From the NCBI GenBank assembly GCA_964532205.1, contig CAZHGQ010000005.1, forward strand, positions 1,520 to 65,519: a stretch of DNA of 64,000 bases. The letters are read 5' to 3'. The position numbers and the translations under genes are program-made. The number at the start of each line of letters is the position of its first letter. Position 1 is the stretch's first letter. This document shows, in pieces, positions 3,011-44,648 of this stretch. Below the pieces are notes generated by a model. It saw only the letters and a program-made list of their open reading frames with translations. It was not told the DNA's origin and ran no database searches. Source of the DNA: an uncultured Candidatus Saccharibacteria bacterium. GTDB lineage: Bacteria; Patescibacteriota; Minisyncoccia; Phycocordibacterales; JAKAEA01.

Positions 3011-3454
3011 ATGCAGATCAATAATCTCAAAAGAAAAACACCTAATCGCAAGCGCATGATTGTCGCTCGTTGTGGTAAGAGTGGCAAGACAGCGGGCCGT
3101 GGTACGAAGGGTCAGAAGGCGCGTGCTGGTCACAAAATCCGTCCTGAACTTCGCGATATCATTAAGCGAATTCCAAAGATGCGTGGCCGTGGTAAAAATA
3201 GCAACGTATCATTTTACGAAAAGCCAGTTGTACTCAATCTCGATGCTATCGAATTACTCTTTGCTAATGGTGAGACAGTTTCTCGAACAACCCTTATTGA
3301 AAAAGGTCTTGTTTCAATGCGTAATGGTAAAGTGCCAGCCCTAAAGATTCTTGGGGATGGTACACTTACCAAGAAGGTCACAATTAAAGGCCTCCCAGTC
3401 TCACAGTCTGCTAAAGCCAAGATTGAAAAGGCAGGAGGAGTAATCAATGAATAA
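3011..3454 (+). CDS. rplO: 50S ribosomal protein L15
   Basis: An ATG at 3011 gives MQINNLKRKTPNRKRMIVARCGKSGKTAGRGTKGQKARAGH, an L15-like start. It lies only ~10 nt after the S5 stop, so no L30 gene lies between them. Confidence 0.85.
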   Translation: MQINNLKRKTPNRKRMIVARCGKSGKTAGRGTKGQKARAGHKIRPELRDIIKRIPKMRGRGKNSNVSFYEKPVVLNLDAIELLFANGETVSRTTLIEKGLVSMRNGKVPALKILGDGTLTKKVTIKGLPVSQSAKAKIEKAGGVINE

Positions 3455-4718
3455 ATTTTCAGAAAAACTTCGACTCATCCTTGCGGATCGGACTCTCGTT
3501 AAGCGAATTTTTATAACCATAGTTTTGCTCGTTGTCTTCCGACTTCTAGCAGCTATTCCTATTCCTGGTATTGATGCAATTCGCCTCAATCAGCTTTTTA
3601 GTGGCAACCAGTTCCTAGGCTTGCTCAACGTTTTCTCTGGTGGCGGTCTTTCAAACCTGTCGATCGTGATGCTCGGTGTTGGTCCATACATCACGTCAAC
3701 AATTATCATGCAGTTGTTGACGTTACTCTCACCACGTCTCAAGGCTATGTATCAGGAAGAAGGTCAGCTTGGCCGACGTAAGTTTGCTCAATACTCACGC
3801 ATGCTCTCTGTACCTCTGGCTATCTTGCAAGCTTTCGGTTTTCTTATTTTGTTCCAGAAGCAGGGTATTCTCGATCCACTTGGTTCATTTGAACTCATTC
3901 GAAATATTTTGATCGTGACTGCCGGTTCAATCTTCTTGATGTGGCTCGGTGAACGCATCAGCGAATTCGGTATTGGTAATGGCCTCTCGCTTATCATCTT
4001 CGGTGGTATCGTAGCTTCATTCCCACTTTCTGTTGGTCGCCAGATTTATTCATACGATCCATCACAGTTGCCAATGTATTTAGCAATCATTGCCGGTGCT
4101 ATTGTTGTTATCTATGCTGTGGTAGTTATCACTGAAGCTGAACGACCAATTCCCGTAACGTACGCCAAGCAGGTGAGGGGTAATAAAGTCTACGGTGGTG
4201 TTTCAACATATTTGCCATTACGACTCAACCAGGCCGGTGTGATCCCAATTATCTTTGCATTGTCTTTGATGCTTTTCCCTCAAGTTATCTTCGGTTTCTT
4301 GGCCCAGGTTAAGAATGCCACACTAGCCGCATGGGCTCTTAAGGGCGAGCAATTGCTGCAAAATCAGTGGGTCTACAATATTGCTTACTTCTTACTGGTA
4401 TTCGTCTTCACATACTTCTACACAGCGGTAACATTTGATCCAAACAGCATTTCAGAAAATTTGCAGAAGAATGGCGCTTTCATTCCAGGTGTGCGCCCAG
4501 GTCAGTCGACAGCCGCTCACATCTCACGAATTCTGACGCGCCTCACTGCGTTCGGCGCCCTCTTCCTGGCTATCATTGCTATCTTGCCGCTGGTTGTCCG
4601 AGCCACAACTGGTTTCACTTCGGTGGCGATCGGTGGTACTGCATTGCTCATCGTCGTCTCAGTGGTTATCGATTTGATCCGACGTACTGACGCTCAGATC
4701 TCGATGCGGGAGTATTAA
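3447..4718 (+). CDS. secY: preprotein translocase subunit SecY
   Basis: The 423-aa multi-TM protein is in the canonical position after L15 and overlaps the L15 stop by 8 nt (ATGAATAA). Confidence 0.95.
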   Translation: MNKFSEKLRLILADRTLVKRIFITIVLLVVFRLLAAIPIPGIDAIRLNQLFSGNQFLGLLNVFSGGGLSNLSIVMLGVGPYITSTIIMQLLTLLSPRLKAMYQEEGQLGRRKFAQYSRMLSVPLAILQAFGFLILFQKQGILDPLGSFELIRNILIVTAGSIFLMWLGERISEFGIGNGLSLIIFGGIVASFPLSVGRQIYSYDPSQLPMYLAIIAGAIVVIYAVVVITEAERPIPVTYAKQVRGNKVYGGVSTYLPLRLNQAGVIPIIFALSLMLFPQVIFGFLAQVKNATLAAWALKGEQLLQNQWVYNIAYFLLVFVFTYFYTAVTFDPNSISENLQKNGAFIPGVRPGQSTAAHISRILTRLTAFGALFLAIIAILPLVVRATTGFTSVAIGGTALLIVVSVVIDLIRRTDAQISMREY

Positions 4719-4735
4719 AATTTTGATTATAAAAA

Positions 4736-4768
4736 GAAAAACACCTCAACTTGTGGGGTGTTTTTTTG
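4736..4768. terminator. rho-independent terminator (bidirectional) after secY
   Basis: Hairpin ACACC..GGTGT followed by T7 at 4761-4767; the reverse complement has an A/T run on the other side. Confidence 0.6.
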
Positions 4769-4776
4769 TTTGAGAA

Positions 4777-5172
4777 CTAGAAATAATCTTGAACTGCATC
4801 GGTAAATTTTTTTGCTAGATTTTTTCCTTTGCTAGTGAGGGTAATAATGTGGGACCGAGCATCCTGCTTGCACATGGTACGAATAGCAAATCCCTTTTGG
4901 ATGAGTCGTCTGATATGTGTGCTCGCAGTATTGTGTGGAATCTCCAAGGTGTTGCACATCAACTTGACCCGGCACGAACCATCAAGATGGAAAACCAGCA
5001 ACAATATGACTGCCTCACGAAGTGATAGGCTGTGTTTTGTCGAAAGTAGCATAACGTCGGCCATTGTGCAGTAGAGAAGTTTTGCTTGCAACTGAGGATC
5101 CATAGCGTCTCCCAAAGAACGAGTCGTTAAATAAAACTTTGCAAACATTACCACGTATTTAGAAACATACAA
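4777..5172 (-). CDS. MarR-family winged-helix transcriptional regulator (putative)
   Basis: 131 aa; the central segment ...TASTHIRRLIQKGFAIRTMCKQDARSHIITLTSKGKNLAKKF resembles the MarR recognition helix plus wing. Confidence 0.55.
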   Translation of the reverse strand: MYVSKYVVMFAKFYLTTRSLGDAMDPQLQAKLLYCTMADVMLLSTKHSLSLREAVILLLVFHLDGSCRVKLMCNTLEIPHNTASTHIRRLIQKGFAIRTMCKQDARSHIITLTSKGKNLAKKFTDAVQDYF

Positions 5173-5223
5173 GTAGACGTAAAAAGCCGCTGGATGAAAT
5201 CCAGCGGCTTTGGTTTTTGGGTG

Positions 5224-5346
5224 TCAGCCACTTATTAACATTACACAGATTGCGAATACTACTAATGCTACTGCCAGTAGGCCGGCAATCAAAGCGTATT
5301 CGATAGTGTCACTGTTAATCCCACACCGTTTCCAGAAAGAACTCAT
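5224..5346 (-). CDS. Flp/Fap-family pilin-like micro-protein (40 aa)
   Basis: Not in the ORF track because it is under 60 aa. It reads MSSFWKRCGINSDTIEYALIAGLLAVALVVFAICVMLISG*. An RBS AAGGAGAA lies upstream, and the TIEYALIAGLLAVAL core is Flp-like. Confidence 0.45.
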   Translation of the reverse strand: MSSFWKRCGINSDTIEYALIAGLLAVALVVFAICVMLISG

Positions 5347-5366
5347 GTTTCTCCTTGTGTTCGTTG

Positions 5367-5531
5367 TTATCGATCGTTCTGTTGGATGGTCTGCGTAGAG
5401 TGCTGATTCAGGATTTTCCGACCTACGGTCAGATAAACCGCCAAAAGGGCAACGGCCACTAGGCCGAGAATCAGTGCGTACTCAAGGATTTCTCCTCCCC
5501 AGGGCCGCATCTTTGGACGGTAATTGGTCAT
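5367..5531 (-). CDS. Flp/Fap-family pilin (54 aa)
   Basis: It reads MTNYRPKMRPWGGEILEYALILGLVAVALLAVYLTVGRKILNQHSTQTIQQNDR*. The G-x4-EY motif (G/EILEY) followed by a hydrophobic helix is the Flp prepilin signature. An RBS AAGGAA lies upstream. Confidence 0.55.
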   Translation of the reverse strand: MTNYRPKMRPWGGEILEYALILGLVAVALLAVYLTVGRKILNQHSTQTIQQNDR

Positions 5532-5628
5532 AAGTTCCTTTCGTTTAGTCTGCTAGTATTATAGCATATATATAGCCTATGTGTCAAGGACTATAATAGG
5601 GCCTAAAAATAGGGTATTATGGCCATAT

Positions 5629-6219
5629 ATGAAACCTCAAACATTCATCTTTTTCGGTCGTTCAGGCTGTGGCAAAGGCACTCAAGCCCAGCTTATAATG
5701 GACCGTCTGCACAAGGCAGATCCTAGTCATAAAGTCATTTATATCGAGTCAGGTGCCAAATTACGTGAGTTTGCGGATGAGGTCGGCCTCTCAGCAGAAT
5801 TGACTCGCGATACCATGGCTAAAGGCGGTTTATTGCCTTCATTTATTCCAATCTGGATTTGGGCTAATACCTTCGTGCGTCACATGACGGGCGCTGAGCA
5901 CGTGGTCATGGATGGTCTGTCACGCCGTATTTATGAAGCGCCAGTTTTGGATGATGCGCTCAAGTTTTATAAGCGCGAGCAGCCGATTGTGATTTCTATG
6001 GAAGTTAGCCGCGACTGGTCGCGCAATCGGCTGCTCGCGCGTGGCCGAGCCGACGACAATAAGCAAGACATTGAAGAGCGCCTAAACTGGTACGATGAAA
6101 ATGTTTTGCCAACAATTGAATACTTTAAAACAAATCCGTACTACAAATTTATCAGCGTAAATGGCGAACAGTCTATAGAACAGGTTGCTGAAGAAATTAA
6201 AGCCAAAACCGGAATTTAA
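5629..6219 (+). CDS. adk: adenylate kinase-like nucleoside monophosphate kinase
   Basis: A start at MKPQTFIFFGRSGCGKGTQAQLI gives the P-loop GxxGxGKGTQ. It sits between secY and map as in the conserved spc/alpha region. Confidence 0.8.
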   Translation: MKPQTFIFFGRSGCGKGTQAQLIMDRLHKADPSHKVIYIESGAKLREFADEVGLSAELTRDTMAKGGLLPSFIPIWIWANTFVRHMTGAEHVVMDGLSRRIYEAPVLDDALKFYKREQPIVISMEVSRDWSRNRLLARGRADDNKQDIEERLNWYDENVLPTIEYFKTNPYYKFISVNGEQSIEQVAEEIKAKTGI

Positions 6220-7369: not shown

Positions 7370-10135
7370 ATGGAGCACGTGGCTTCGCATGCTGAACATT
7401 CTTTTACCAACCCTGATGAGGAGTTGGCCTATTTACGTGAACAGGTTGCTGTCCGGGAGCGCGAATTAGCCGCTCGTGGTGCGGAGGTTGTGAAGGATCA
7501 TGTCGTCTCTGACACGATTAAGGATTATAGTTATCGGCCAACAGGCAAAACACTTGATGCTGGCTTTGCTGAAAAGAAAACCGTTCTGGCTGAATTGGCT
7601 TTGAACTTGGCACCTGAGGCCCACGACACAAAAATTTCTGAACTAGCAGCAATGCTCACGGAAAAGGGTTTTAAAAATACCTTGGCAGTAGTGGAGGCCA
7701 TGAAAGATCCACATGTAGCCGATGACTTCCATCGTTTTTTGGTGCAGTTTGTGAAGAAGGGTCATGAAGTGCCGGGTCTGCCAATGAAGTCGGAAGTCTT
7801 TAGTGAACTTTCCATGACGCTGTATGAAGTTTCATTGCCGGCTGGTTCTGAGGCCGATAAACAAAAAGGTTTAAAGGAATTGGTTTCGGCCATGGAGCAG
7901 TTTTATGCCGGTATGTTGTCTTTGGGATCAGATAAGAGCGGTCGTTACTTTAGCTTGGAGATTGCCAACCCAAATCATAGCTCAGAATTTATCATTTATG
8001 TTTCCGTACCTGATGAGAAAAAAGATTTGTTCGAGAAGCAAATTCTTTCACTCTTTAGTAATGCCAAGATCAAAGAAGTTCCCGATGACTACAATATTTT
8101 TCATGAGGGTGGCACAACTGTTGGGGCGGTAGCACACTTGAAGAAACATCCGATTTTTCCAGTTAAAACATATGAGCAATTTGATCACGATCCATTTAAT
8201 GTTTTGGTCAATACATTTTCTAAGATCAAAAAAGATGGTGAGGGTGCAGCCGTGCAAGTGGTCTTTAGACCAAGTCAGCATGATTATTTAGACGAGTACA
8301 AAGTTAGTCTCAAAAAGATAAAGGAAGGGGAGTCGGTCGGTAAAGCCTTGCCAAAAACATTGACCAAAGAAATTCTTTCAAGCTTCGGTGAGTTTATTGT
8401 TGGCGTTAAAAAGAAAAAAGACGAAGAGAAAGACAAACCAAAGGTTATTGATGAAGCGGTCGTTAAGAATATTGAACATAAGATTTCGTCTCAGATTGCT
8501 GAGGTCAATATCCGTATTTTGGCTTCGGCGCCGGATGCTGGCGATGCTAACCGTATTCTCGACGACATTGCCTCAAGCTTCCATCAATTTGAAAACACAT
8601 CTGGCAATGGCATTGAATTCAAGCGACTTTCGGGTAGCAAGCTGGCAGCACTTGATCACGATTTTTCATATCGAGCCTTTACTAAAAGTGATTTGCTACC
8701 ATTATCATTTAAAGAATTAACCACCATCTTCCATTTTCCTGGCGCGACGGTAACGTCGTCACCTCAGCTCAAGCAGGCCAAGGCGGGTTCAGCTGCAGCG
8801 CCGCTCGATCTACCACAAGAGGGCACACTGCTTGGCGTGAACCGATTCCGCAACATTGAGACTAAAGTCTTTATGACCAAAGAAGATCGCTTGCGCCACT
8901 TCTACACAATAGGTCAGACCGGTACAGGTAAATCGACGCTGCTCAAAAATATGATCGCTCAGGACATCCTGCAGGGTGAGGGTGTATGCATGATCGATCC
9001 GCACGGCGTCGATATCTTGGATATTTTGGCTATGATCCCGAAAGAGCGTTACGAAGATGTGATTTACTTTGATCCGAGTTATACTGCCCGACCAATGGGT
9101 CTTAATATGCTCGAATATGATGCTCGCTATCCGGAGCAGAAGACATTCGTGGTTAACGAAATGCTCTCAATTTTCAATAAGTTGTTTGATATGAAGGTGG
9201 CTGGAGGGCCGATGTTTGAACAATATTTCCGAAATGCTGTGTTGCTGGCGATTGATGATCCGAATGATGGCGCGACATTGCTCGATATTTCCAAGATTTT
9301 GGCTAATAAGCCGTACCGCGAGCAGAAGTTGGCTAAATGTACCAATCCGATCGTGGTGCAGTTTTGGAAAGAAGTGGCCGACAAAGCCGGTGGTGAAGCG
9401 TCATTAGCCAACATCGTGCCGTACATCACCTCAAAGTTCGATGTCTTTTTGTCGAACGATATTATGCGACCAATTATTGCTCAGGAAAAATCCTCATTCA
9501 ATTTCCGCGAAGTCATGGATAATAAAAAGATTTTGCTGGTCAATTTGGCCAAGGGTCGTCTCGGAGATCTCAATGCCAACCTGATTGGTCTGATTTTGGT
9601 GGGTAAAATTTTGATGGCCGCGCTTTCGCGTGCTGACTCGATCGGCCAGGATTTACCACCGTTCTATTTGTATATTGATGAGTTCCAGAATGTCACTACA
9701 GATTCAATTGCCACAATTCTTTCCGAAGCACGTAAGTATAAATTGTCACTCAATGTGGCTCACCAATTTATCGCTCAGCTTGAAGAAAAGATTCGCGATG
9801 CGGTGTTTGGAAACGTAGGTTCATTGGCAGTCTTTAGGGTAGGGGCCGATGATGCTGAATACTTGGAAAAACAATTTTCACCTGTCTTTACTGCCAATGA
9901 CATAATTAATATTGAAAATCGTAATGCCTATGTGAAGATGCTCGTGCATGGGCGGCCGGCGGTGCCATTTAATATTGAGACATTGCCACCGCCGGCCGGC
10001 AAGAAAGAACACCTCGAGAAACTCAAAGAACTTTCATATTTAAAATTTGGTAAAGCGCGTTCACAGATTGAGTCGGTGATACATTCTAAATACAAAAAAG
10101 AGCCGCCAGTTGCTCCATTGACAAATACTAAATAA
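7370..10135 (+). CDS. 921-aa soluble P-loop NTPase; the C-terminal half is an FtsK/HerA / type-IV-coupling-protein (TraG/TraD/VirD4, AAA_10-like) ATPase; the N-terminal ~450 aa are unassigned
   Basis: Walker A is TIGQTGTGKSTLL and Walker B is FYLYIDEFQN. The downstream R-K-x5-L-x3-AHQ-x3-QL motif (RKYKLSLNVAHQFIAQL) is typical of conjugative VirD4/VirB4-type ATPases. No N-terminal TM helices are present. Confidence 0.6.
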   Translation: MEHVASHAEHSFTNPDEELAYLREQVAVRERELAARGAEVVKDHVVSDTIKDYSYRPTGKTLDAGFAEKKTVLAELALNLAPEAHDTKISELAAMLTEKGFKNTLAVVEAMKDPHVADDFHRFLVQFVKKGHEVPGLPMKSEVFSELSMTLYEVSLPAGSEADKQKGLKELVSAMEQFYAGMLSLGSDKSGRYFSLEIANPNHSSEFIIYVSVPDEKKDLFEKQILSLFSNAKIKEVPDDYNIFHEGGTTVGAVAHLKKHPIFPVKTYEQFDHDPFNVLVNTFSKIKKDGEGAAVQVVFRPSQHDYLDEYKVSLKKIKEGESVGKALPKTLTKEILSSFGEFIVGVKKKKDEEKDKPKVIDEAVVKNIEHKISSQIAEVNIRILASAPDAGDANRILDDIASSFHQFENTSGNGIEFKRLSGSKLAALDHDFSYRAFTKSDLLPLSFKELTTIFHFPGATVTSSPQLKQAKAGSAAAPLDLPQEGTLLGVNRFRNIETKVFMTKEDRLRHFYTIGQTGTGKSTLLKNMIAQDILQGEGVCMIDPHGVDILDILAMIPKERYEDVIYFDPSYTARPMGLNMLEYDARYPEQKTFVVNEMLSIFNKLFDMKVAGGPMFEQYFRNAVLLAIDDPNDGATLLDISKILANKPYREQKLAKCTNPIVVQFWKEVADKAGGEASLANIVPYITSKFDVFLSNDIMRPIIAQEKSSFNFREVMDNKKILLVNLAKGRLGDLNANLIGLILVGKILMAALSRADSIGQDLPPFYLYIDEFQNVTTDSIATILSEARKYKLSLNVAHQFIAQLEEKIRDAVFGNVGSLAVFRVGADDAEYLEKQFSPVFTANDIINIENRNAYVKMLVHGRPAVPFNIETLPPPAGKKEHLEKLKELSYLKFGKARSQIESVIHSKYKKEPPVAPLTNTK

Positions 10136-14753: not shown

Positions 14754-16460
14754 TTATGAGCCGAATTTAATAGGCAGTTTATTGAGGACTTCAGGGCTAA
14801 GTAGAGCGGTCAGGAGCGTGGTGACAATGAGCCAAGCTGAAAGAAGGATAACAAAGCCAATGAGAACCATTTTGAACACATACTTGGCTCGAGTGGTTTT
14901 TGCAACATCACCAGCCGAGGTGAGATAGAGCCAGCCCGCGTAGGCAAATGATACTGCTGCTAGGGGAGCGGCGATAATGAAGAAGGCGTTGATAACATTT
15001 TTAACCAATCTAATGAAGGCATTGAAATCACAATCTGAAGCACCGTTACATGGAATTAGGCCACCGGCACCATGAGGGGTGATTGTTGGAGTTGGAGGTT
15101 GAGTGTAGCCACCCGATGAACCAGATGGCGTGCCTGTATACTGGTCGATAAAATCTTCTTTACACTGAGTGACATTTGTTGAGTCCTTACAATTTTCGGT
15201 TGCAATTACATCAACACAACTTGAAGGGTCGCTAGCATCAATACACATCATTAGAGGACCAGTATATTCACCTTGATTGATATCTGTGCGGTCGGTGCCC
15301 GTCGCATTGCTGTTGTCATCGCCGATGCCGCCACCTGTATAATCACCAATATCAATATCGCCGCCGCTACCACCGTCGTCGGTTGGATTGCCACCTCCAC
15401 CAGAATTACCACCAGTACCACCAGTCGAACCACCAGAATTACCACCATCGCCGCTGACACCACCACCCGCACCACCAGTAATTTTTTTGTATGTTGAATA
15501 GAAGGGTTCGTTAGCACTTGAGCCATCAGCTGTTCGTAAACCTGCTGGGCCGGCCATTGAATCTGGTCGGTATTTGCTTGGGTAATACCAAATACCCTGG
15601 ACGTAATTTTTTATACCATTATAGGCAATCGGCAATTGAGCCGCCCACTTTGCTTTATCGAAACTAAAATCGGTTTTATCTTTTCGATAGTGAACATTCC
15701 ACTCAGTCAGGAACATTGGTTTTGTGGAGCCAATGTTAGCGCGAGCTTGCTTGATGCGACTAATTTGTTGTTCGGCTGAATTTTCACCTGAGCCACCATA
15801 CGGGTGGAAACCGATAATATCAGCATATGAAGTTAGACCAGGTGTTTTCAAAGCATTGGCATCCCAAGAAACAGAACCACTAATAGTGATTTCACCAAGG
15901 GGGTGGAGGGCATCCCAGGCACCTTTTTGTAGAATATCAACATACTGTTTCATGGAGCCGCTCCAGTATGTACAGAGATTCGGTTCGTTGCCGATTTCCC
16001 AATAGTCAACTGCGCCATTTGCAGCTGCCGCAGCCTTTTTGAAATAATTATAGACTTGGTTGTAATTTGGGATTGGTACGGATTTTACACAACTACCATT
16101 AACTTTTTTGTTTTCAGTTGGTGTGAATACGACAACTGTTTTAATGCCTTCTGCCTGGAGTTTGCGCATATTACTGAATTCCGAAGAGGAAGGGGGATTA
16201 TCCCAATCACGAACCTCTTTCCAAATACGAGCACTGGTTAGGTTGAGACCTTTCAAAAACGAAGTGCTTATTGTTTCACTGGCCGTGACACCAAAAATGA
16301 AACCACCGGGTACCAAGGCAGACGCGGCAGTCTGGTTTATTGATTGCGATTTGGCGGTTTGTTGAAGATTTGAATTATTAAAATATAAAAAAAGTGTTGA
16401 GGCGAAGGTGATAACAACGAGAAAACCACCTAATGCATTCGCCAGAGAATGTTTATTCAT
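14754..16460 (-). CDS. secreted clan GH-A (GH5-like) glycoside hydrolase with a Gly-rich linker, a Cys-rich module and a C-terminal two-helix membrane anchor
   Basis: N-terminal TM/signal. It has the YWEIGNEPN (acid/base NEP) and FLTEWN (nucleophile TE) motifs. The linker reads GGAGGGVSGDGGNSGGSTGGTGGNSGGGG. The C-terminus AAPLAAVSFAYAGWLYL...MVLIGFVILLSAWLIV is a helix-loop-helix hydrophobic pair. Confidence 0.55.
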   Translation of the reverse strand: MNKHSLANALGGFLVVITFASTLFLYFNNSNLQQTAKSQSINQTAASALVPGGFIFGVTASETISTSFLKGLNLTSARIWKEVRDWDNPPSSSEFSNMRKLQAEGIKTVVVFTPTENKKVNGSCVKSVPIPNYNQVYNYFKKAAAAANGAVDYWEIGNEPNLCTYWSGSMKQYVDILQKGAWDALHPLGEITISGSVSWDANALKTPGLTSYADIIGFHPYGGSGENSAEQQISRIKQARANIGSTKPMFLTEWNVHYRKDKTDFSFDKAKWAAQLPIAYNGIKNYVQGIWYYPSKYRPDSMAGPAGLRTADGSSANEPFYSTYKKITGGAGGGVSGDGGNSGGSTGGTGGNSGGGGNPTDDGGSGGDIDIGDYTGGGIGDDNSNATGTDRTDINQGEYTGPLMMCIDASDPSSCVDVIATENCKDSTNVTQCKEDFIDQYTGTPSGSSGGYTQPPTPTITPHGAGGLIPCNGASDCDFNAFIRLVKNVINAFFIIAAPLAAVSFAYAGWLYLTSAGDVAKTTRAKYVFKMVLIGFVILLSAWLIVTTLLTALLSPEVLNKLPIKFGS

Positions 16461-17909: not shown

Positions 17910-20831
17910 ATGAGACAAAAATTAATTATTGGCCTCAGTATCGCAGTTGTGCTTTTTGTTGGTTTTATTACGACGTACACATTCAGTCTAAAGTTAAAAG
18001 AGGGCGCAGTGCCGTCATCGTCACTCACGGCGAGTGTTGCTGAAGCTCTACAACTTCAACTCAATGTTGGTTGGAGTCGTTTTTCACCACAAGGCGGTCA
18101 GAATGTGATCTATGTCTCAAGTTCACAAGGTAATGACAATAACGACGGTCTCTCTCAGTTAACCCCTGTCAAAACTCTGGCCAAAGGCCAGTCACTGATT
18201 CGCTCAAATCACAGTGACTGGATGGTCTTGCGGCGTGGCGATGTTTGGGATGAAAGTTTTGGCACGTGGACTCGCAGTGGTACGTCAGCCGATAACCCAG
18301 TCGTAATTTCAAGTTATGGCACAGGTCCACGTCCGCTGGTGAATGTTCGCAACGGTCAAAGCGCTTTGGCACTTAGAAATGCCGGCGTCAACAATTTTGC
18401 CATGATCGGTATTCACATTCGTTCTTATCAGGAAAAGAATAAAAAACAAGAGAAGGGTATTAGTTTGCCTGGTAATTACCAAAATATTTACCTTGATGAC
18501 ATGTTCATCGAAGGCTTTACTGGTAATGTTGTGACAGAAACCTGCGAGACGTGTGTGCGAAAAAATCTAGTCATCACTCACTCAATTATTGCCAATGCCT
18601 ATAACCCAGAGGGTAATGCCAGTGGTATTTTTATCACCTCAACAGATGGCATCAAAGTTGAAGACAGTATCTTCTATCATAATGGTTGGAATAACGGTAA
18701 TGTAAGTTATGATCCTACAGCGCGTAGAACTGCCGCAACAGAATTTAATCAAGGTCTCTATCTTTCACACAACAATACAGCCAATACAATCGTTCGTAAT
18801 AATGTTATTGCTGATACTGCCAATGGCGGTGTTTGGTTGCGTCGTGGTGGTTTGGCTGAAAACAACTTCTTTGTTCGCAATACTAACGCACTACTCGTGG
18901 CCATTGGTCCAAACACGGTGCGTAACAACGTTATTGTTGAGGGTGTAAATAATATTGATGGAAATAAGGTTGGTGGTATTGAAACTAAGCCAACAAATAC
19001 AGGTACAGTTTTTGAAAATAACTTGATTGTCAATTCTGCCAAAAACACCGGAAGTGGGTTTAAGGCCGTCGGGTCATTCGATTTCGGTTATGGTGAAGAC
19101 TATGCTAAATCATTGATTACTCGTTACAGTTTTACCTTTAAAAATAATACTATCTATAATGCTGGTGTTGGTCTAAATGTTGGTACTCGCTCTATTGCCG
19201 GTGGTGATATTTTGGGTAATATATTTATCGAAAAGCGAGATCAGGCGCCCGTACCGACTGGTTACGCACCGGTTGGTGCCTGTTCGGATCTTGGCGGCGG
19301 CGGTCTGCATTTAACCGTAGCTGGCAACACATTCTATTGTCCAAATTCAACAAACAAGTTCGTGATTACGAACGTACCGAAAACATTTAGCGAATATTCA
19401 ACTGCAGTCGGTGATACGACAAACCGTGAAGCGGATGTGACATTCGCTGATCCAAACCGCAGTATTAATAACTATGTTTCCGGTGGTTATGATGCATTCG
19501 TCCGAGGGTTACTGAATCAGTCGATAGATCGTTGGGATGAGAAATTCAGTGCCGCATCTCTTAATACATATTTCCGTGAAGCTTTTAAAACCAAATCAAA
19601 GACAGATAATCCGAAAGAGCCCGATGGTACAACTACACCACCGACTAAGCCTAGTTCAATTACCTTACTTACTCCAAACGGTGGTGAAACAATTTCAATT
19701 GGCGATACAGTGAATGTGACCTGGAAATCAACAGAACTTCCGGCTGACTCTACAGTTCGCATCTCACTCTATAAGGGTGTGGAATTGGTAAGTACTTTGG
19801 CCACGGTAACAAATAGCGGTAGTTATTCATGGCAAGTTGGCGAACGACCCGAGGGTTTTGATTACTCTATCCGCGTGACTTCGACTAAATCCGATATGCT
19901 GAAAGATAATAGCGACCGACCGTTCATGATAAATAAGTTGGCACCACCAGAAACAAAAATTACTGTTACATCACCAAACGGAAATGAAAACGTGACAGTT
20001 GGTAGTACTGTCAATATTACCTGGAGCTCACTGACATTTGATAAAGACGCTCATGTCCGAATTAGTTTGTACAAAGCTGGTGTACAAGTAAGTACTATTG
20101 TTGCTGACACATATAACTATGGTACATATACTTGGACTGTTGGGGATCGCGAAACAGCAAGTGATTACAAGATTCGAATCACTTCAATCTCAAAACCAAC
20201 TGTTTACGATGAGAGTGATTTAGTATTCACAATTACCAAACCATTACCGCCAAGTATTACAGTACAATCACCGAATGGTGGGGAAGCCTGGTCAATTGGT
20301 GATGCTGTCCAAATTCGTTGGTCAACAGTAAGTCTGCCTTCAACTGCTACTGTCAGAATTAGTTTGTACAAAGCTGGTGTACAGGTTTCAACTCTAGTTG
20401 ATAGCTATGCCAATGTCGGTGTCTTCAATTGGAACATTGCTGATCGCCCAACAGGCAGTGATTACACAGTACGTGTGACGTCGACATCTGACACAACTAT
20501 CAAGGATGAAAGTAATGCAACATTTACCATCAATCCCGCACCTCAGCCGTCGATCACTGTCACATCACCAAATGGTGGCGAAACAATTAAGATTGGCTCA
20601 ACCGTACCTATTAGCTGGACATCAACTCGAGTTTCAAACAATGTCCGTATTAGTTTGTACAAAAATGGTACATATGTAAAAACCATTGCTTCCGATGTGG
20701 CAAACAATGGTTCATACTCATGGACTGTTGGTAGTGAAACTGCAACGTCAGGTTATGCAATTCGCGTGACATCAAGTGCTGATGATCAGCTTCGTGATAT
20801 GAGTAATGGTACGTTTACCATTACGAAGTAG
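17910..20831 (+). CDS. large secreted right-handed beta-helix (pectate-lyase-fold-like) protein with 4 C-terminal ~100-aa tandem Kre9/KNH-like repeats
   Basis: N-terminal TM/signal. Repetitive NN(V/F)I...N turns (NNVIADTANGGVWLRRGG, NNFFVRNTNAL, NNVIVEGVNN) suggest a beta-helix. Four repeats carry I-T-(V/L)-x-S/T-PNGGE...W...VRISLYK...Y-W-VG...YxIRVTS. Confidence 0.55.
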   Translation: MRQKLIIGLSIAVVLFVGFITTYTFSLKLKEGAVPSSSLTASVAEALQLQLNVGWSRFSPQGGQNVIYVSSSQGNDNNDGLSQLTPVKTLAKGQSLIRSNHSDWMVLRRGDVWDESFGTWTRSGTSADNPVVISSYGTGPRPLVNVRNGQSALALRNAGVNNFAMIGIHIRSYQEKNKKQEKGISLPGNYQNIYLDDMFIEGFTGNVVTETCETCVRKNLVITHSIIANAYNPEGNASGIFITSTDGIKVEDSIFYHNGWNNGNVSYDPTARRTAATEFNQGLYLSHNNTANTIVRNNVIADTANGGVWLRRGGLAENNFFVRNTNALLVAIGPNTVRNNVIVEGVNNIDGNKVGGIETKPTNTGTVFENNLIVNSAKNTGSGFKAVGSFDFGYGEDYAKSLITRYSFTFKNNTIYNAGVGLNVGTRSIAGGDILGNIFIEKRDQAPVPTGYAPVGACSDLGGGGLHLTVAGNTFYCPNSTNKFVITNVPKTFSEYSTAVGDTTNREADVTFADPNRSINNYVSGGYDAFVRGLLNQSIDRWDEKFSAASLNTYFREAFKTKSKTDNPKEPDGTTTPPTKPSSITLLTPNGGETISIGDTVNVTWKSTELPADSTVRISLYKGVELVSTLATVTNSGSYSWQVGERPEGFDYSIRVTSTKSDMLKDNSDRPFMINKLAPPETKITVTSPNGNENVTVGSTVNITWSSLTFDKDAHVRISLYKAGVQVSTIVADTYNYGTYTWTVGDRETASDYKIRITSISKPTVYDESDLVFTITKPLPPSITVQSPNGGEAWSIGDAVQIRWSTVSLPSTATVRISLYKAGVQVSTLVDSYANVGVFNWNIADRPTGSDYTVRVTSTSDTTIKDESNATFTINPAPQPSITVTSPNGGETIKIGSTVPISWTSTRVSNNVRISLYKNGTYVKTIASDVANNGSYSWTVGSETATSGYAIRVTSSADDQLRDMSNGTFTITK
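19659..20828 (+). repeat. four tandem ~297-300-bp coding repeats
   Basis: Repeat units start at 19659, 19959, 20256 and 20553. The protein-level identity is clear; the units have diverged at the DNA level. Confidence 0.7.
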
Positions 20832-21326
20832 TTAAGAACTTTTAAAGCCATTTAGCAAAGCTTCGGCTTGGCTGGCTAAGTCCATAAAGCCCCCCATTTC
20901 TTGAATTGTGAGATGGCGGGGCTTTGTGTCTTTAATGCAAAACACACCTAAGGGTAATCCTGAGACTGAATCAATAAGAGCCATGCCAGCATAGAATCGA
21001 ATGTGAGGTTCCCCAGTCACGTAGGGGTTATTCTTGAATCGCTCATCAAGTAGGGTGTCTTCTACAACGAACACGTCTTCTGCAAGCATGGCGTAGCTAC
21101 AGAAAGCAATTTCACGCGGCCCTTCCTTATTTGAAATTCCCTGACACGACTTATACCACTCTCGATCTTTATCGATAATTGAGATTGTTGAAATTGGTAC
21201 ACTGAGGAGTTTTGTGGCTTGTGAGGTAATAGCGTCAAAACGCGGATCTTGTTTTGAGTCTAAAATACCTTTGGCATAAAGAGCCTTAAGGCGTTGTGAC
21301 TCATGCGGATGGAGTAGTGTTGTCAT
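20832..21326 (-). CDS. GAF domain protein
   Basis: Classic GAF consensus: DERFKNNPYVTGEPHIRFYAGMALIDSVSGLPLGVFCIKDTKPRHLT. It overlaps the upstream gene by 4 nt. Confidence 0.65.
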   Translation of the reverse strand: MTTLLHPHESQRLKALYAKGILDSKQDPRFDAITSQATKLLSVPISTISIIDKDREWYKSCQGISNKEGPREIAFCSYAMLAEDVFVVEDTLLDERFKNNPYVTGEPHIRFYAGMALIDSVSGLPLGVFCIKDTKPRHLTIQEMGGFMDLASQAEALLNGFKSS

Positions 21327-21835
21327 GTTTTTTTAGGATTATTAATAACTGTTTCAACTCCTACAAAAAAACGGATTTCGCCAGTAGTATCCAAGACAGG
21401 GGAAATTTGTAAAAGTGCGTCATATATTGTTCCGTCTTTATGTTTGTTTTTAACAGTAACTTTATACGATTCCTTTTTAACCTTTATGGTATGCCACAAA
21501 ACTTTGTAAAATTCTGGTGACATTTGTCCACCCCACAGTGACGGTTTTTGACCAATCACTTCTGAGAGGGAGTAGCCGGTTGTGCGCTCAACTGCGCCGT
21601 TGGTGTAAAGAATTACACCCTCTGGATTAGTTACAATAACTTGCTCATCCATTTTCTCGCACATGATATTGAGCGAGCCGCAGCGGGTGCATTTAATCTC
21701 AATAGCACCGTGACCTTGGTCTTTAGCCAAAAGTTTGCCGCATTTGGTGCAGCGAATATCAAGATCTTTTTGAGGAGTTGTCATCTTTGCTCTTTTTAGA
21801 GCTTCGTGAGCTTCTTGTTTTTGAGTATAACACAT
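21323..21835 (-). CDS. Mu Com-like zinc-ribbon fused to a PAS sensor domain
   Basis: The N-terminus IRCTKCGKLLAKDQGHGAIEIKCTRCGSLNIM closely parallels phage Mu Com (IRCKNCNKLLFKADSFDHIEIRCPRCKRHIIM). It is followed by a PAS-like segment QVIVTNPEGVILYTNGAVERTTGYSLSEVIGQ. Confidence 0.6.
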   Translation of the reverse strand: MCYTQKQEAHEALKRAKMTTPQKDLDIRCTKCGKLLAKDQGHGAIEIKCTRCGSLNIMCEKMDEQVIVTNPEGVILYTNGAVERTTGYSLSEVIGQKPSLWGGQMSPEFYKVLWHTIKVKKESYKVTVKNKHKDGTIYDALLQISPVLDTTGEIRFFVGVETVINNPKKT

Positions 21836-36800: not shown

Positions 36801-37910
36801 ATGGGCATTCTTAGCAATCTTTTTACCAAGAAATCTGGCAGCGTCGTTGGCGTTGATATCGGCTCATCATCTATTAAAGTTGTGCAGCTCGCTCGCCTAG
36901 GTGGTAAAGCTGTCCTTGAAACATACGGCGAGCTCGCCTTAGGTACATACGGCGGCGTTGAAATTGGCCGCTCAACAAATTTAACTCCTGAAAAAATTGC
37001 TGAGGCACTTAAAGATGTCATGCGTGAATCAAAAATCACGACAACAAACGCTGGTTTCGCTATTCCATTCGGCGCCAGTTTGATCACGGCTATGGATATG
37101 CCAGCTGTTTCAGACAAGCAACTCGAACAGATGATTCCAATCGAAGCCCGCAAATATATTCCGGTACCGATTACCGAAGTCACTCTAGACTGGTCTGTGG
37201 TGCCCAAGACTGCTTCAAAACCGATTGATTTTTCAAGCGATGAAAAACAAACCGATCAGGGCGACAAGGTTGAAGTCATGATGGTGGCCATTCATAATGA
37301 TGTGCTCAATAAATTTCAGACCATTGTTCAACAAAGTGGTGTCAACGCTTCATTTTTTGAAATCGAAATCTTTAGCACGATTCGATCTGTGCTCGATCCT
37401 GAACTTGAAACTCAGATGATTGTTGATCTCGGAGCAGCAACAACCAAGCTGTATATTGTTGAGCAGGGAATTATCCGCACCTCACACATTGTAAATCGTG
37501 GCTCACAGGACATTACCTTAGCTCTTTCTAAGGCTCTAAACATTACCGTGGAAACCGCTGAGGCTTATAAGCGCGATCTGACTCAAGTGCCTGACGATCA
37601 GAAAGAAAACTTTGCTCAAATCGCTAACATTAGCCTCGATTTTATCTTTTCCGAGGTTAAACGTATCCTGCAGAACTATCAGAAGAAATATAATAAGGAT
37701 ATTCCAAAAGTTATCATGGTGGGTGGTGGTGCCCGACTCAACGGCGTGCTAAAAATCGCCGAAAATCATCTTGAAACACAAATTGTACTCGGTGATCCAT
37801 TCGAAAAGACTGAAGCCCCAGCTTTTTTGGAAGAAGTTCTTAAAAATACCGGCCCAGAATTCACGGTAGCCATGGGTACAGCCCTGCGAAAACTTCAAGA
37901 AATGAATTAA
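36801..37910 (+). CDS. pilM: type IV pilus assembly protein PilM (actin-like ATPase fold)
   Basis: SVVGVDIGSSSIKVVQLAR...; 369 aa; first gene of the pilus locus. Confidence 0.85.
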   Translation: MGILSNLFTKKSGSVVGVDIGSSSIKVVQLARLGGKAVLETYGELALGTYGGVEIGRSTNLTPEKIAEALKDVMRESKITTTNAGFAIPFGASLITAMDMPAVSDKQLEQMIPIEARKYIPVPITEVTLDWSVVPKTASKPIDFSSDEKQTDQGDKVEVMMVAIHNDVLNKFQTIVQQSGVNASFFEIEIFSTIRSVLDPELETQMIVDLGAATTKLYIVEQGIIRTSHIVNRGSQDITLALSKALNITVETAEAYKRDLTQVPDDQKENFAQIANISLDFIFSEVKRILQNYQKKYNKDIPKVIMVGGGARLNGVLKIAENHLETQIVLGDPFEKTEAPAFLEEVLKNTGPEFTVAMGTALRKLQEMN

Positions 37911-37960
37911 GTGGAAAACTTATTGCGCGCTTTACAAAATGATGTGCTAAAATAAGGGGA

Positions 37961-38653
37961 ATGGAGAATAAGTTTCAAACGTCGTTCATTCCACAAAAGC
38001 CGCTCACTCAGACTTTCAGTCAACCGCCTCGTACCACCAACTTCTTTACGCTGGTTTCTACCATCATATTTATCACTATTTTAGCCTTATGTGGCGGTGT
38101 TTTCGGTTATCAGAAATATTTGCAAAATCAAAATGCTAATTTTGCTGAGCAGCTGCGCAAAATTACGGCCGAATTCCAACCTAGTTTCTTGTCAGAAATG
38201 ACGCGTTTAGATAATCGTTTGGTCTCAACCAAAACCTTACTCGCTAATCACTTGGCAGTTTCCAAATTCTTTGATTTCTTGAGCAAAAATACCTTGAAAA
38301 ATGTCCGTTTCTCAAGTTTTTCATATGTCTCTGACGGTACAAAGATTACAGTTTCAATGAAGGGGCAGGCTAATGGTTTTGCGGCGGTGGCTTTGCAATC
38401 TATGGCCTTCGGTACGGCCGATAATCTCAAGGTGTTACGTAACCCAACCATTGGTGATCTCAATCTCGATGCTTCAGGCAATGTTTCATTCGGTTTTGCT
38501 ACGTATATTCAGCCAAACTCAATGTTGTATCGCAGTGCGTTAGTCCCTGCACCTGTTGTTCCAGCTGCGACAATTGCTCCTGGTACAACAACAGCTTCAA
38601 CTACACCGTCACAAACAGCAAGTACAACATCGACAACAACCAAAAAACGCTAA
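37961..38653 (+). CDS. pilN: PilN-like bitopic pilus assembly protein
   Basis: A single TM after ~30 aa, a coiled/periplasmic domain, and a Thr/Ser-rich tail; position after pilM. Confidence 0.55.
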   Translation: MENKFQTSFIPQKPLTQTFSQPPRTTNFFTLVSTIIFITILALCGGVFGYQKYLQNQNANFAEQLRKITAEFQPSFLSEMTRLDNRLVSTKTLLANHLAVSKFFDFLSKNTLKNVRFSSFSYVSDGTKITVSMKGQANGFAAVALQSMAFGTADNLKVLRNPTIGDLNLDASGNVSFGFATYIQPNSMLYRSALVPAPVVPAATIAPGTTTASTTPSQTASTTSTTTKKR

Positions 38654-38654
38654 T

Positions 38655-39194
38655 ATGAAATTTCTAACCCCACTCATTCTCATAGGTCTTTCTGTCGCAG
38701 CGTTTTTCTTCTATATTAATCCGACCTACACCAATATTGGCGCCCTGCGAAAAGATAATGCTCAATATAAAGAGGCTTTGGCCAATGCTCAAGTTGCTCA
38801 GGAACACTGGAATCAATTGCGTTCACGATATGATAGTTTGACCGGTGATCAGTTGATTCGTTTGAAGAAGTTTATGCCGGATAAAGTTGATACGATTAAA
38901 TTAGCAGTAGATTTGAATGCTGTTGCTGAAAAATATGGTAAGGGTGTACGCAACATTAAATTTGCTGATGCACTTGAGCCAGCTGGTGATGTCGGATCAG
39001 GCGGTAAGCCATATGGTACAACAGCCGTTAGTTACGATGTGACCATGACGTATGACAATTTCCTTCGATATTTAAAAGATTTGGAACAGAGTTTGCAATT
39101 TATTGATATTACAAACATTGGTTTCCAGCCGGCGTCGACAGCTGATGCGACATACAACTTTACTCTGACCCTTAAGACCTATTGGTTAAAATAA
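38655..39194 (+). CDS. pilO: PilO-like pilus assembly protein
   Basis: An ATG at 38655 follows the pilN stop. It gives MKFLTPLILIGLSVAAFFFY (TM) and then a coiled-coil. The track ORF is extended 5'. Confidence 0.55.
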   Translation: MKFLTPLILIGLSVAAFFFYINPTYTNIGALRKDNAQYKEALANAQVAQEHWNQLRSRYDSLTGDQLIRLKKFMPDKVDTIKLAVDLNAVAEKYGKGVRNIKFADALEPAGDVGSGGKPYGTTAVSYDVTMTYDNFLRYLKDLEQSLQFIDITNIGFQPASTADATYNFTLTLKTYWLK

Positions 39195-39195
39195 T

Positions 39196-39546
39196 ATGCC
39201 ACGTAAATCATACAAAGGAACAGTTTTCACTATCGTTGCTTTACTTATTGCTGCGGCTATTGGTTATGACACCGTAGTTGGTCCACCTGCATCAGCTCAA
39301 AACTTAGAGACGACAGATGTTAATGCGGCTGAAACTGGTGTGGTCAGTCAGCAATTCACCGATTTACTCAATCGGATTCAAGCGCTCAATCTCGATACAA
39401 GTATCCTTAATGATCCAGCTTTTGCCAGCTTGACTGATTATTCAGTTACGTTGGTACCGGTTGAGTCAGGTCGTCCTAATCCTTTCGCGCCACTTAGTTC
39501 TGCTGCACAATCTACCCAAACTACAAACACACCTAAGGGGCGATAA
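39196..39546 (+). CDS. small bitopic pilus-locus protein (PilP-position), unknown
   Basis: TM FTIVALLIAAAIGY followed by a Thr/Ser-rich tail. Confidence 0.4.
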   Translation: MPRKSYKGTVFTIVALLIAAAIGYDTVVGPPASAQNLETTDVNAAETGVVSQQFTDLLNRIQALNLDTSILNDPAFASLTDYSVTLVPVESGRPNPFAPLSSAAQSTQTTNTPKGR

Positions 39547-39552
39547 TTTTTC

Positions 39553-41292
39553 ATGACATTACTTGAGGCCCTGGTACAACAAAATATTTTGACTGCCAAA
39601 GAGGCAGCCAATGTTCAGAAGGAAATGAACGATACCGGCCAAACGGTTGAGACTATTTTGGCTGCCAAGGGTATTGATGCACAGGATGTGCTCAAAGTTA
39701 AAGGCTCATTGTTTGAAGTGCCAACAAAACATGTAGCAGCAGATGATGTGCCGTATAGTGTTTTGGAATATATTCCCGAAGAATCTGCTAAACATTATCG
39801 TTTTGTACCGCTCGGTGTTAAAGATGGTGTGCTCGAGGTTGGTGTGGTTGATCCTGACAGTATTGAAGCCCGCGATGCACTCAACTTTATCTCTTCGAAA
39901 ATTGGTTTACCATACAAAATTTTCTTAATCTCTGAAGCTGATTTTGAAAAAATTCTCGGCGTTTATCAAGGTCTGTCTGGTGAAGTGACCAAGGCGCTCG
40001 ATGAATTGGAAACAGAATTGAAACCCGATGCGATTTTAGCGCAAGACGAAGAGAAGGAGGAGCGGGAGGGGAATGATGTTACTGATAAAATCAAAACGGA
40101 AGCTAAAATTGTTGAGGATGCACCAGTTACAAAAATTGTGGCCACTGTTTTGCGATACGCTGCTGAAGGTAATGCCTCCGACATTCACATTGAACATATG
40201 CGTGACAATGTGCGCGTGCGTTTCCGCGTTGACGGTGTTTTGAATACAAGCTTGGTTTTACCGATTAAAGTTCATTCGGCTTTGACTGCCCGTATTAAAA
40301 TTTTGTCGAATATGCGTCTCGACGAAAAACGTAAGCCACAAGACGGTCGTTTTTCGGCAAAAATTGATGGTCGTAAAATCGACTTCCGTGTCTCAACATT
40401 CCCAACGTATTATGGCGAAAAAATCGTTATGCGTATTCTCGATCAGGAAAAGGGTGTAAAGGAATTGACGGAGATGGGTCTGACGGCTGAGGGGGTAGAG
40501 CGCATTAAAAAGGCCATCACTAAGCCATATGGCATGATTTTGATTTCTGGTCCAACTGGTTCCGGTAAAACGACCACATTGTATTCTATGCTTAACTTGG
40601 TTGACCGAGAAAAGAAGAACGTGCTTTCACTTGAAGATCCTATTGAATACAACATTGATGGTGTGAGTCAGTCACAAGTGCGTCCGGAAATTGGTTATAC
40701 CTTTGCCACGGGTTTGCGTACGACCTTGCGTCAAGACCCGAACGTTATCATGGTCGGCGAGATCCGAGATAAAGAAACAGCGCAGCTTGCTGTGCAAGCT
40801 GCGCTGACTGGTCACTTGGTGCTCTCCACTATCCACACCAACAACGCTGTAGGTGTCATTCCACGTCTAATTGATATGGGTATCGATCCGTACCTGATTG
40901 CACCCACACTTGTTTTGGCCATGGCTCAGCGTCTTTCTGCGACACTGTGTCCTGATGGTGGTAAAGATGTGCCGGTAGAAGGCAGTCTCGAGCTCATTAT
41001 TGAAAAACAATTCGCTGATTTACCTGAAGAATTTCGTAAGAATATTAAAATTCCAAAAACCGTTAAGGAAATTGCACCAACACCTGATTGTCCAACAGGC
41101 ACCCGTGGTCGTATTGCTGTCTTCGAAATGTTTGAAATTGATAAGGAAGTTGAGCATGCAATTTTAACCAATCCAACTGAGTTGGAAATTAACAAGATTT
41201 TGCGCAAAAAAGGTATGTTGACTATGCGTGAAGATGCCATGCTTAAGGCTTTCAAAGGCCAGATTCCATTCGAAGAGGTTAACAAATTATAG
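39553..41292 (+). CDS. pilB: type IV pilus assembly ATPase PilB (GspE family)
   Basis: Walker A ISGPTGSGKTTTLYSML, Asp/His boxes and a tetracysteine-like CPDGG...CPTGTRGR. Confidence 0.9.
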   Translation: MTLLEALVQQNILTAKEAANVQKEMNDTGQTVETILAAKGIDAQDVLKVKGSLFEVPTKHVAADDVPYSVLEYIPEESAKHYRFVPLGVKDGVLEVGVVDPDSIEARDALNFISSKIGLPYKIFLISEADFEKILGVYQGLSGEVTKALDELETELKPDAILAQDEEKEEREGNDVTDKIKTEAKIVEDAPVTKIVATVLRYAAEGNASDIHIEHMRDNVRVRFRVDGVLNTSLVLPIKVHSALTARIKILSNMRLDEKRKPQDGRFSAKIDGRKIDFRVSTFPTYYGEKIVMRILDQEKGVKELTEMGLTAEGVERIKKAITKPYGMILISGPTGSGKTTTLYSMLNLVDREKKNVLSLEDPIEYNIDGVSQSQVRPEIGYTFATGLRTTLRQDPNVIMVGEIRDKETAQLAVQAALTGHLVLSTIHTNNAVGVIPRLIDMGIDPYLIAPTLVLAMAQRLSATLCPDGGKDVPVEGSLELIIEKQFADLPEEFRKNIKIPKTVKEIAPTPDCPTGTRGRIAVFEMFEIDKEVEHAILTNPTELEINKILRKKGMLTMREDAMLKAFKGQIPFEEVNKL

Positions 41293-41310
41293 TGTGATAT
41301 ACTAAACCAT

Positions 41311-42773: not shown

Positions 42774-42774
42774 T

Positions 42775-43983: not shown

Positions 43984-44129
43984 GGCCTTATTTAGGCACT
44001 TATCCACAACGTAAATATTGCGGAGTGCTTAAGTGGTATATAATTAAGCATATCGATTTAAAGCGGCCCGTCTCGCTCGAGAGATCAGGGACGAGTCGAT
44101 TAAATAAGTTAATTATTAATAGTAAAAAA

Positions 44130-44603: not shown

Positions 44604-44623
44604 TCTGAGTGTTGTCTAAACAA

Positions 44624-44648
44624 AAAACCACCGCAAGGTGGTTTTTTG
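44624..44648 (+). terminator. rho-independent terminator after pilA
   Basis: CCACC GCAA GGTGG followed by T6. Confidence 0.8.

Follow-up and report, generated by a model that had tools for sequence, protein, structure and literature searches.

Does a member of the Patescibacteria, a group in which host attachment and motility are attributed mainly to type IV pili, also carry fibre subunits of the Flp class, and which machinery would serve them? The question is raised by two very small open reading frames (ORFs), here called ORF2 and ORF1, which lie in tandem between secY and adk on contig CAZHGQ010000005.1. We analysed 64,000 nt of this contig, referred to below as the window, and our genome-level statements are limited to it. 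An earlier note on this DNA had described two minus-strand ORFs of 40 and 54 amino acids (aa), each with a ribosome-binding site (RBS), beside a MarR gene and between secY and adk, and had read them as tandem pilin micro-genes of the Flp/Fap type. The coordinates and the Shine-Dalgarno sites of both ORFs were confirmed, their setting was borne out by the coordinates and by Pfam, and the sequence comparisons described here support the pilin reading. The two genes are:

5367-5531, minus strand: ORF2, 54 aa, a putative Flp-type prepilin (MTNYRPKMRPWGGEILEYALILGLVAVALLAVYLTVGRKILNQHSTQTIQQNDR)
5224-5346, minus strand: ORF1, 40 aa, apparently a truncated, atypical Flp-like paralogue (MSSFWKRCGINSDTIEYALIAGLLAVALVVFAICVMLISG)

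ORF1 and ORF2 are very probably genes of the Flp family. The Pfam model PF04964 (Flp_Fap) matched ORF2 with an E-value of 8e-5 (22.8 bits) and ORF1 with an E-value of 2e-4 (21.6 bits). When ORF2 was compared exhaustively, by phmmer, with 1.84 billion representative proteins, three matches reached E ≤ 1e-3, all of them Flp pilins. These three proteins (P0001-3; E 4e-4 to 8e-4, 57-62% identity, 56-83 aa) all match Flp_Fap and read ...GGEVLEYALI(L/A)GLIVVA...VGxK..., which gives them the motif GGE(V/I)LEYALILGL...VGxK in common with ORF2. A metagenome scan found two high-GC contigs (L081 and L082) with tandem Flp arrays and, downstream of them, a TadE-like gene; these Flp pilins share 48-49% identity with ORF2, and two of them pass the Pfam threshold (34.5 and 37.5 bits). 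Similar results were obtained with a profile (A2) built from four sequences, namely ORF1, ORF2 and their sister-strain alleles. It retrieved 72 proteins, two being ORF1 and its own sister allele; the others, from Tepidisphaeraceae, Phycisphaerae, Blastocatellia and Bacillota metagenome-assembled genomes (MAGs), are nearly all annotated as PF04964 or 'Flp family type IVb pilin'. Two A2 matches whose genomic context was inspected (P0019 and P0047) each belong to a tandem array that immediately precedes the genes for an A24-only peptidase (TadV) and TadE, and the P0047 locus runs on through RcpC, a secretin, TadZ, TadA, TadB and TadC. Tandem flp copies are the norm in homologous loci.

Among solved Tad pilins, 8u2b/8ucr (E=0.059) and 8u1k (E=0.17) gave weak alignments with a family profile that includes ORF2 (A3). 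In these alignments the Glu of the solved pilins is mature residue 5, which fits cleavage of ORF2 after Gly12. Neither ORF matched PF07963, the model for the N-methylation motif of type IVa pilins (G/FTLIE-type, ahead of a globular domain), and neither matched the VirB2-like T4SS_pilin model PF18895 even at E ≤ 10. A word-index homology search with ORF2 alone as the query returned no matches. ORF1 is a called protein on the source contig (P0007), while ORF2 has no record in a collection of 15 billion proteins; its absence there indicates that gene callers overlook such micro-genes, so that the number of Flp pilins in small genomes may be underestimated.

If ORF2 is a prepilin, it should have the features by which Flp pilins are defined (PMC3244431): a length of about 60 aa, a Gly in position -1, a Glu in +5, a Tyr in +6 and ~20 aa of hydrophobic Flp motif. 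Indeed, ORF2 reads G12 / G13-E-I-L-E17-Y18, or G/x4-EY, which places Gly at -1 and the Glu and Tyr of the EY pair at +5 and +6; behind this pair comes a hydrophobic stretch, about 19 aa long, and then VGxK. This upholds the view of the earlier note that the second ORF has a canonical Flp prepilin cleavage site and hydrophobic helix. The predicted layout is a basic leader of 12 aa, a cut after G12 and a mature peptide of 42 aa (GEILEYALILGL...). The best 19-aa Kyte-Doolittle windows score 2.55 for ORF2 and 3.13 for ORF1 and start at residues 19-20; compared with the expected prepilin of about 50-80 aa with a ~20-aa hydrophobic motif, the pair agrees, and both ORFs align with Flp pilins. On these predicted features, ORF2 conforms to the published definition of an Flp pilin.

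ORF1 was called a more divergent paralogue in the same note, and so it appears: over 23 aa its identity to ORF2 is 52%, the EYALIAGL core is common to both, and the cleavage residues of ORF1 are mis-spaced. The motif G/XXXXEY, with Glu or Asp at +5, is present in ORF2 and kept in L085, one of the sister alleles described below, and is missing from ORF1. ORF1 ends with its transmembrane helix and has no C-terminal tail. We take it to be a truncated, atypical Flp-like paralogue; forms as short as ORF1 exist elsewhere, such as the Flp variant P0069 of 39 aa.

The Gly-Gly pair at residues 12-13 of ORF2, ahead of the hydrophobic core, allows another view of this motif, in which the ORFs encode bacteriocin or signalling peptides with a double-glycine leader that is cut by the C39 peptidase of an ABC exporter. 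ORF2 is small, strongly promoted and strain-variable, as such a peptide might be. We nevertheless consider this highly improbable. Its 13-residue leader is unlike what we take to be the usual consensus for double-glycine leaders, the GG is missing from ORF1, and the sole ABC pair of the window is FtsE/FtsX. In addition, the significant homologues are all Flp pilins in tad loci, where GG-E-V-L-E-Y is the TadV site.

A second question is whether frames this short are genes at all. Sister alleles were available on two metagenome contigs from ENA, L084 and L085, which were reached through the MarR-like protein. These contigs are 99.9% identical to each other, the codon for residue 12 of ORF2 being one of only two differences, and they have the gene order of the window (adk-ORF2-ORF1-MarR-secY). 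Both micro-ORFs are kept open, with the same start positions and RBSs, as frames of 54 and 39 codons. For ORF2 compared to its sister allele, the nonsynonymous divergence (dN) is 0.15 and the synonymous divergence (dS) 1.06, a dN/dS of 0.14, and a binomial test for surplus synonymous change gives P values of 2e-5 to 4e-6. ORF1 is near saturation in the same comparison (proportion of synonymous differences, pS, 0.73; of nonsynonymous differences, pN, 0.43; P=0.035). An Rfam scan of 4600-5800 found no family near threshold. Because the frames, starts and RBSs survive, dN/dS is 0.14 and there is no Rfam match, we judge ORF2 and ORF1 to be protein-coding genes.

It could be argued that ORF1 and ORF2 are chance open frames, or that the region is a non-coding RNA, since ORFs of 40-54 aa are frequent by chance and the public collection has no gene call for ORF2. 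This is most improbable. The dN/dS of ORF2 (P about 1e-5) is that of a coding sequence under constraint, both frames persist with their starts and RBSs through 25-46% divergence of the DNA, and the homology to Flp pilins is significant while Rfam gives no match. The conservation pattern, as we read it, effectively refutes the idea of chance or non-coding sequence.

The sister alleles also differ from the window in a very uneven manner. The DNA identity of the window to L084, feature by feature, is as follows:

adk: 95.3%
adk-ORF2 intergenic region (promoter): 95.9%
ORF2: 75%
ORF1: 54%
ORF1-MarR intergenic region (terminator): 95.8%
MarR gene: 96.9%
secY: 87.8%

The divergence falls in two blocks, codons about 12-47 of ORF2 and the whole of ORF1, which are parted by a 40-nt segment (5350-5389) that is 97.5% conserved and contains the 3' end of ORF2, the spacer and the ORF1 RBS. 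Similarly, dS between the window and L084 is 0.057 for the MarR gene, 0.25 for adk, 0.61 for secY and 1.06 for ORF2. In dS, ORF2 thus exceeds the MarR gene beside it about 20-fold, which points to an old diverged allele, introduced by recombination or maintained by balancing selection, rather than to simple relaxed constraint. The uneven synonymous divergence across adjacent genes suggests a mosaic, recombining population. In the two alleles compared, the flp cassette is a between-strain hot spot of allelic replacement or diversification, and hypervariability of this kind would be expected for the subunit of a surface-exposed fibre.

Two sharply bounded variable blocks amid conserved flanks could also be the work of a diversity-generating retroelement, an element common in Patescibacteria, instead of recombination or selection. 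We give this almost no credence. The window contains no second copy of the cassette, neither a silent pilS-like copy nor a retroelement template, and no reverse transcriptase domain turned up in the Pfam scans of the window. Moreover, many of the differences are synonymous third-position changes, which indicate an old diverged allele and not targeted mutagenesis.

The pair is flanked by the following genes and signals:

3447-4718, plus strand: secY, flanking the three-gene insert
4741-4761: hairpin between the converging secY and MarR genes, likely a bidirectional terminator
4777-5103, minus strand: MarR/SarA-Rot-type winged-helix regulator, 108 aa, with its own RBS
5183-5211: hairpin terminator after the ORF1 stop, with a perfect 13-bp stem, a 3-nt loop and a T-run on the minus strand
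5561-5580: imperfect palindrome of 20 bp in the promoter spacer (ATAGCATATATATAGCCTAT), a candidate operator
5587-5558, minus strand: sigma-70 promoter TTGACA-N18-TATAAT with an extended -10 TG, matching the consensus at 12/12 positions
5629-6219, plus strand: adk, flanking the three-gene insert

ORF2 and ORF1 form a single compact two-gene transcription unit that runs from promoter to terminator. The Shine-Dalgarno sequence of ORF2 is AGGAA, 4 nt ahead of the ATG, and that of ORF1 is AAGGAG, 5 nt ahead of the ATG. The promoter is of a strong, constitutive type; the 64 kb hold three perfect 12/12 sigma-70 matches, this one included, and by our own estimate the chance expectation of such a perfect promoter is roughly 0.02. 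Both promoter hexamers and the 20-bp palindrome are conserved in L084, and the terminator hairpin is identical in L084 and L085. The palindrome may possibly serve as an operator for the adjacent MarR-like regulator. That protein matches the Pfam families Staph_reg_Sar_Rot (28.1 bits) and MarR_2, and in NCBIfam it finds weak MarR-type matches only.

The longest ORF of adk opens at a GTG at 5581, and we place the real start at ATG 5629 because of the conserved P-loop N-terminus (MKPQTFIFFGRSGCGKGT) and a 196-aa gene call in L084. The insertion severed adk from the upstream secY transcript, so adk must have its own promoter in the 97-bp divergent region (5532-5628). A TATAAT lies at about 5592-5597 on the plus strand, with the -35 box of the flp promoter about 5 bp away, and the adk-ORF2 region also contains a direct repeat of about 24 nt (5556-5578 and 5614-5637). 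At the other end of the insert, the hairpin at 4741-4761 (ACACCCCACAAGTTGAGGTGT on the minus strand) is the exact reverse complement of the version in L084 and L085 (ACACCTCAACTTGTGGGGTGT), a small inversion within otherwise near-identical DNA.

To which lineage does this arrangement belong? The best SecY matches, 59-68% identical, are from MAGs of Paceibacteria-type Patescibacteria (Zambryskibacteria, Nomurabacteria and Paceibacterota). A tblastn search of ORF1, ORF2 and the MarR-like protein against 80 Paceibacteria secY loci gave only noise, mostly from SecY transmembrane segments, and a local Flp hidden Markov model run on every ORF of 25 aa or more from the window and the 80 secY loci found ORF1 and ORF2 alone. 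A scan of GTDB genomes with ORF2 produced 600 pattern matches, none of which was confirmed. By this comparison, the insert of three genes (ORF2, ORF1 and MarR) appears to be lineage-specific.

The flp genes are absent from the secY-adk junction of 56 other Paceibacteria. In most of these relatives the gap between secY and adk is shorter than about 370 bp, mostly <200 bp; in the remaining 14 the junction is filled with unrelated insertions of 570-3400 bp, which makes it an insertion hot spot in Paceibacteria. The inserts in relatives include nucleotide kinases, helix-turn-helix proteins and, in L015, an ORF that by eye looks reverse-transcriptase-like. The nearest homologues come mostly from Planctomycetota and other diderm phyla. 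The GC content of the insert is 42-48%, the same as that of its flanks, and thus shows no compositional trace of recent transfer. Horizontal acquisition followed by amelioration would be the likeliest history of the insert.

A comparable design is found on L090, a metagenome contig of 45% GC, where a tandem Flp-like pair occupies 1612-2185 after the 3' end of topA. It consists of P0002 (..VRWGGEVLEYALIAGL..), which spans more of ORF2 than any other match, and a divergent 73-aa paralogue (..VRWGGELGDYGTAGVLLF..), with no TadV beside them. As in the window, this is an orphan Flp pair adjoining a housekeeping gene.

We then asked which machinery could process and assemble such subunits. The earlier note had seen a pilus system of the type IVa kind in this DNA and no tad or cpa genes, and both statements held: Pfam and NCBIfam scans of 60 ORFs of the window found no tad genes and located a PilM/PilB/PilT/PilC/PilD cluster, whose main features are:

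36801-49572, plus strand: type IVa pilus cluster with PilM, PilB, a response regulator, PilT, PilC, six N-methyl pilins, PilD and a VWA tip protein
45754-46596, plus strand: PilD-type prepilin peptidase (Pfam A24_N_bact and Peptidase_A24), the sole A24 peptidase of the window

In NCBIfam the cluster matched pilT_fam with 413.6 bits, and PilB and PilC were also matched. Its type IVa pilins have leaders of the form KKG/FTL(I/V)E and are 149-285 aa long. A tblastn search with a canonical Tad set (from L086) found no matches in the window, but it is too insensitive to carry weight, as TadA missed even PilB and PilT; the evidence to go by is that of the Pfam and NCBIfam scans. In Bdellovibrio bacteriovorus, PilD cleaves Flp1 in a Tad system that has no TadV (bioRxiv 10.64898/2026.07.08.737194). 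By analogy, the PilD of the window is a candidate processing enzyme for ORF2, and the type IVa cluster is possible shared machinery for ORF1 and ORF2.

Taking these results together, we lean towards the view that ORF1 and ORF2 act as processed pilus subunits. A three-gene cassette with a MarR-type regulator would have entered the secY-adk junction of one Paceibacteria lineage. The short basic leader would hold ORF2 N-in in the membrane until an A24 aspartic prepilin peptidase cuts after Gly12 and exposes a helix of 42 residues that carries Glu in position 5 and Tyr in position 6; this helix could then be extracted and polymerised into, or added to, a thin pilus fibre. ORF1, essentially a transmembrane helix only, would probably be an accessory, minor or priming subunit, or a membrane-retained partner. 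The peptidase and the assembly platform might come from a tad locus elsewhere in the genome or from the PilD and type IVa machinery of the window.

Several results weigh against this view. First, in the PF04964 check named in the earlier note both ORFs found a match with significant E-values, so the refuting outcome of no match did not occur, but both score below the gathering score of 32.2 bits, and no Flp model of NCBIfam matched either of them. Of the sister-strain alleles, one scores 14.2 bits on PF04964 and the other finds no match. As a control, flp genes directly upstream of TadV score only 21.9 bits (P0047) and 29.0 bits (P0019) on Pfam; since these are also under the cut-off, the sub-threshold score of ORF2 is typical of genuine members. 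Second, the Gly of ORF1 lies two residues further from the EY pair, which puts Asn (N11) at -1 and Gly at -3, and in the ORF1 sister allele Ser replaces the conserved Glu. Residue 12 of ORF2, the predicted -1 position, is Ser (AGT) in L084 (734-899) and Gly (GGT) in L085 (6-171); the Ser of L084 is unfavourable, but the coverage of L084 is 2.8x and it may be a sequencing error. Third, the two frames are kept under purifying selection in the sister strain, which speaks against the refuting outcome, named in the note, of no conservation in relatives, but no homologue was found in the 80 related Paceibacteria loci; from these loci and the GTDB scan the ORF1/ORF2 family is not a conserved feature of the Paceibacteria group. 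Fourth, the scans of the 60 ORFs found no TadV, TadA/CpaF, TadB/C, TadZ, TadE/F or RcpC, so that no tad locus is near the pair within the 64 kb, whereas the closest homologues have the peptidase gene directly after the flp genes. Finally, the literature searched reports only type IVa pili for Patescibacteria; within this partial library there was nothing specific on Flp or Tad in Patescibacteria or Parcubacteria.

The lack of tad genes in the window could mean instead that ORF1 and ORF2 descend from Flp pilins but have ceased to build pili, and are orphan single-pass membrane peptides, expressed without Tad machinery and retained for some other role, for example in modulating the type IVa platform or peptidase, or the envelope. 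That ORF1 is little beyond a transmembrane helix, without canonical cleavage spacing, speaks for this, as does the comparable orphan pair beside topA on L090 with no TadV adjoining. On the other hand, ORF2 retains every residue that marks a cleavable, polymerisable Flp pilin (the Gly before the cut, Glu and Tyr in positions +5 and +6, and the hydrophobic motif with VGxK behind it), these residues are preserved across a dS of about 1, and strain hypervariability suits an exposed fibre better than a buried peptide. We therefore regard a purely membrane-resident role as unlikely. A narrower proposal concerns the machinery: that the genome has no Tad system at all, that the Flp micro-pilins are cleaved by PilD and polymerised by, or incorporated via, the type IVa PilB/PilC platform, and that the cassette tunes host or phage interactions. 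Stated in this full form, it is distinctly unlikely. If it were true, a monoderm episymbiont would have a hybrid system, in which a type IVa machine handles subunits of the Tad class.

Other genes of the window include type IV secretion-like genes on the minus strand: a 921-aa VirD4/TraG-type coupling protein (7370-10135), preceded by an AT-rich (33% GC) intergenic region of 380 bp, and a 568-aa protein with a C-terminal T4SS_pilin domain (14754-16460). On the same strand are a 973-aa protein with four Kre9/KNH-like immunoglobulin (Ig) repeats (17910-20831), probably a surface protein, and two small sensor-type proteins (20832-21835), one with a GAF domain and one with a PAS domain and an N-terminal Com-like zinc ribbon.

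The locus adds a member to a known family, and its added interest is that the pair is orphaned from tad genes within a core-gene cluster and is hypervariable between strains. As a pilin pair it would give at least one Patescibacteria lineage fibre subunits of a second class, and if the genome is without Tad genes, it would provide a natural test case for cross-servicing among type IV filament systems, with Flp cleaved by PilD and assembled on a type IVa platform.

Among known systems, the pair is most readily compared to the Flp/Fap major pilins of Tad (type IVc) systems, which belong to PF04964 and include Flp1 of Aggregatibacter, PilA of Caulobacter (8u1k) and 8u2b/8ucr. Like these, ORF2 is a small prepilin (54 aa) with a predicted mature peptide of 42 aa, compared to 45 aa in the solved pilins; it also has a basic leader, the same residues at -1 (Gly), +5 (Glu) and +6 (Tyr) and the hydrophobic motif with VGxK behind it, it likewise occurs in tandem paralogous copies, and the sequence similarity is significant. 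The pair differs in that no TadV, TadE or TadA-C adjoins it, its neighbour being a MarR-type gene in a ribosomal/secY-adk cluster, and in that its host is from a Patescibacteria lineage with a type IVa pilus system. Furthermore, the leader of ORF2 is only 12 aa, its Pfam score is under the gathering cut-off, and the second copy, ORF1, is truncated and has no canonical spacing.

The closest sequences are the Flp pilins of the Planctomycetota type (GGEVLEYALILGLIVVA...; P0009, P0019 and P0047, from Tepidisphaeraceae and Phycisphaerae MAGs). They are 53-57 aa long, their core is 57-70% identical to that of ORF2, and the cleavage context GG-E-(V/I)-L-E-Y is common to both. However, P0019 and P0047 come from loci in which two or three copies lie directly upstream of TadV-TadE, and the P0047 locus is a complete diderm tad locus with a secretin, in GC-rich DNA (62%, this being the sole homologue locus measured), whereas the flp genes of the window are orphans in DNA of 42-48% GC.

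The Tad system of Bdellovibrio bacteriovorus resembles the window in having Flp-type pilins without an adjoining TadV and a PilD, encoded with the type IVa genes, that is available to them. It differs in retaining TadA, TadB, TadC and RcpA, where the window shows no Tad platform, and its Flp1 cleavage has been shown, whereas the PilD of the window is a candidate enzyme for ORF2. Lastly, the 'Flp-like' pilins of Gram-positive tad loci (Imam et al. 2011, PMC3244431), which are small Flp-related proteins, deviate from the +5/+6 consensus in the way that ORF1 and the ORF1 sister allele do, but they sit inside tad operons and ORF1 lies outside any.

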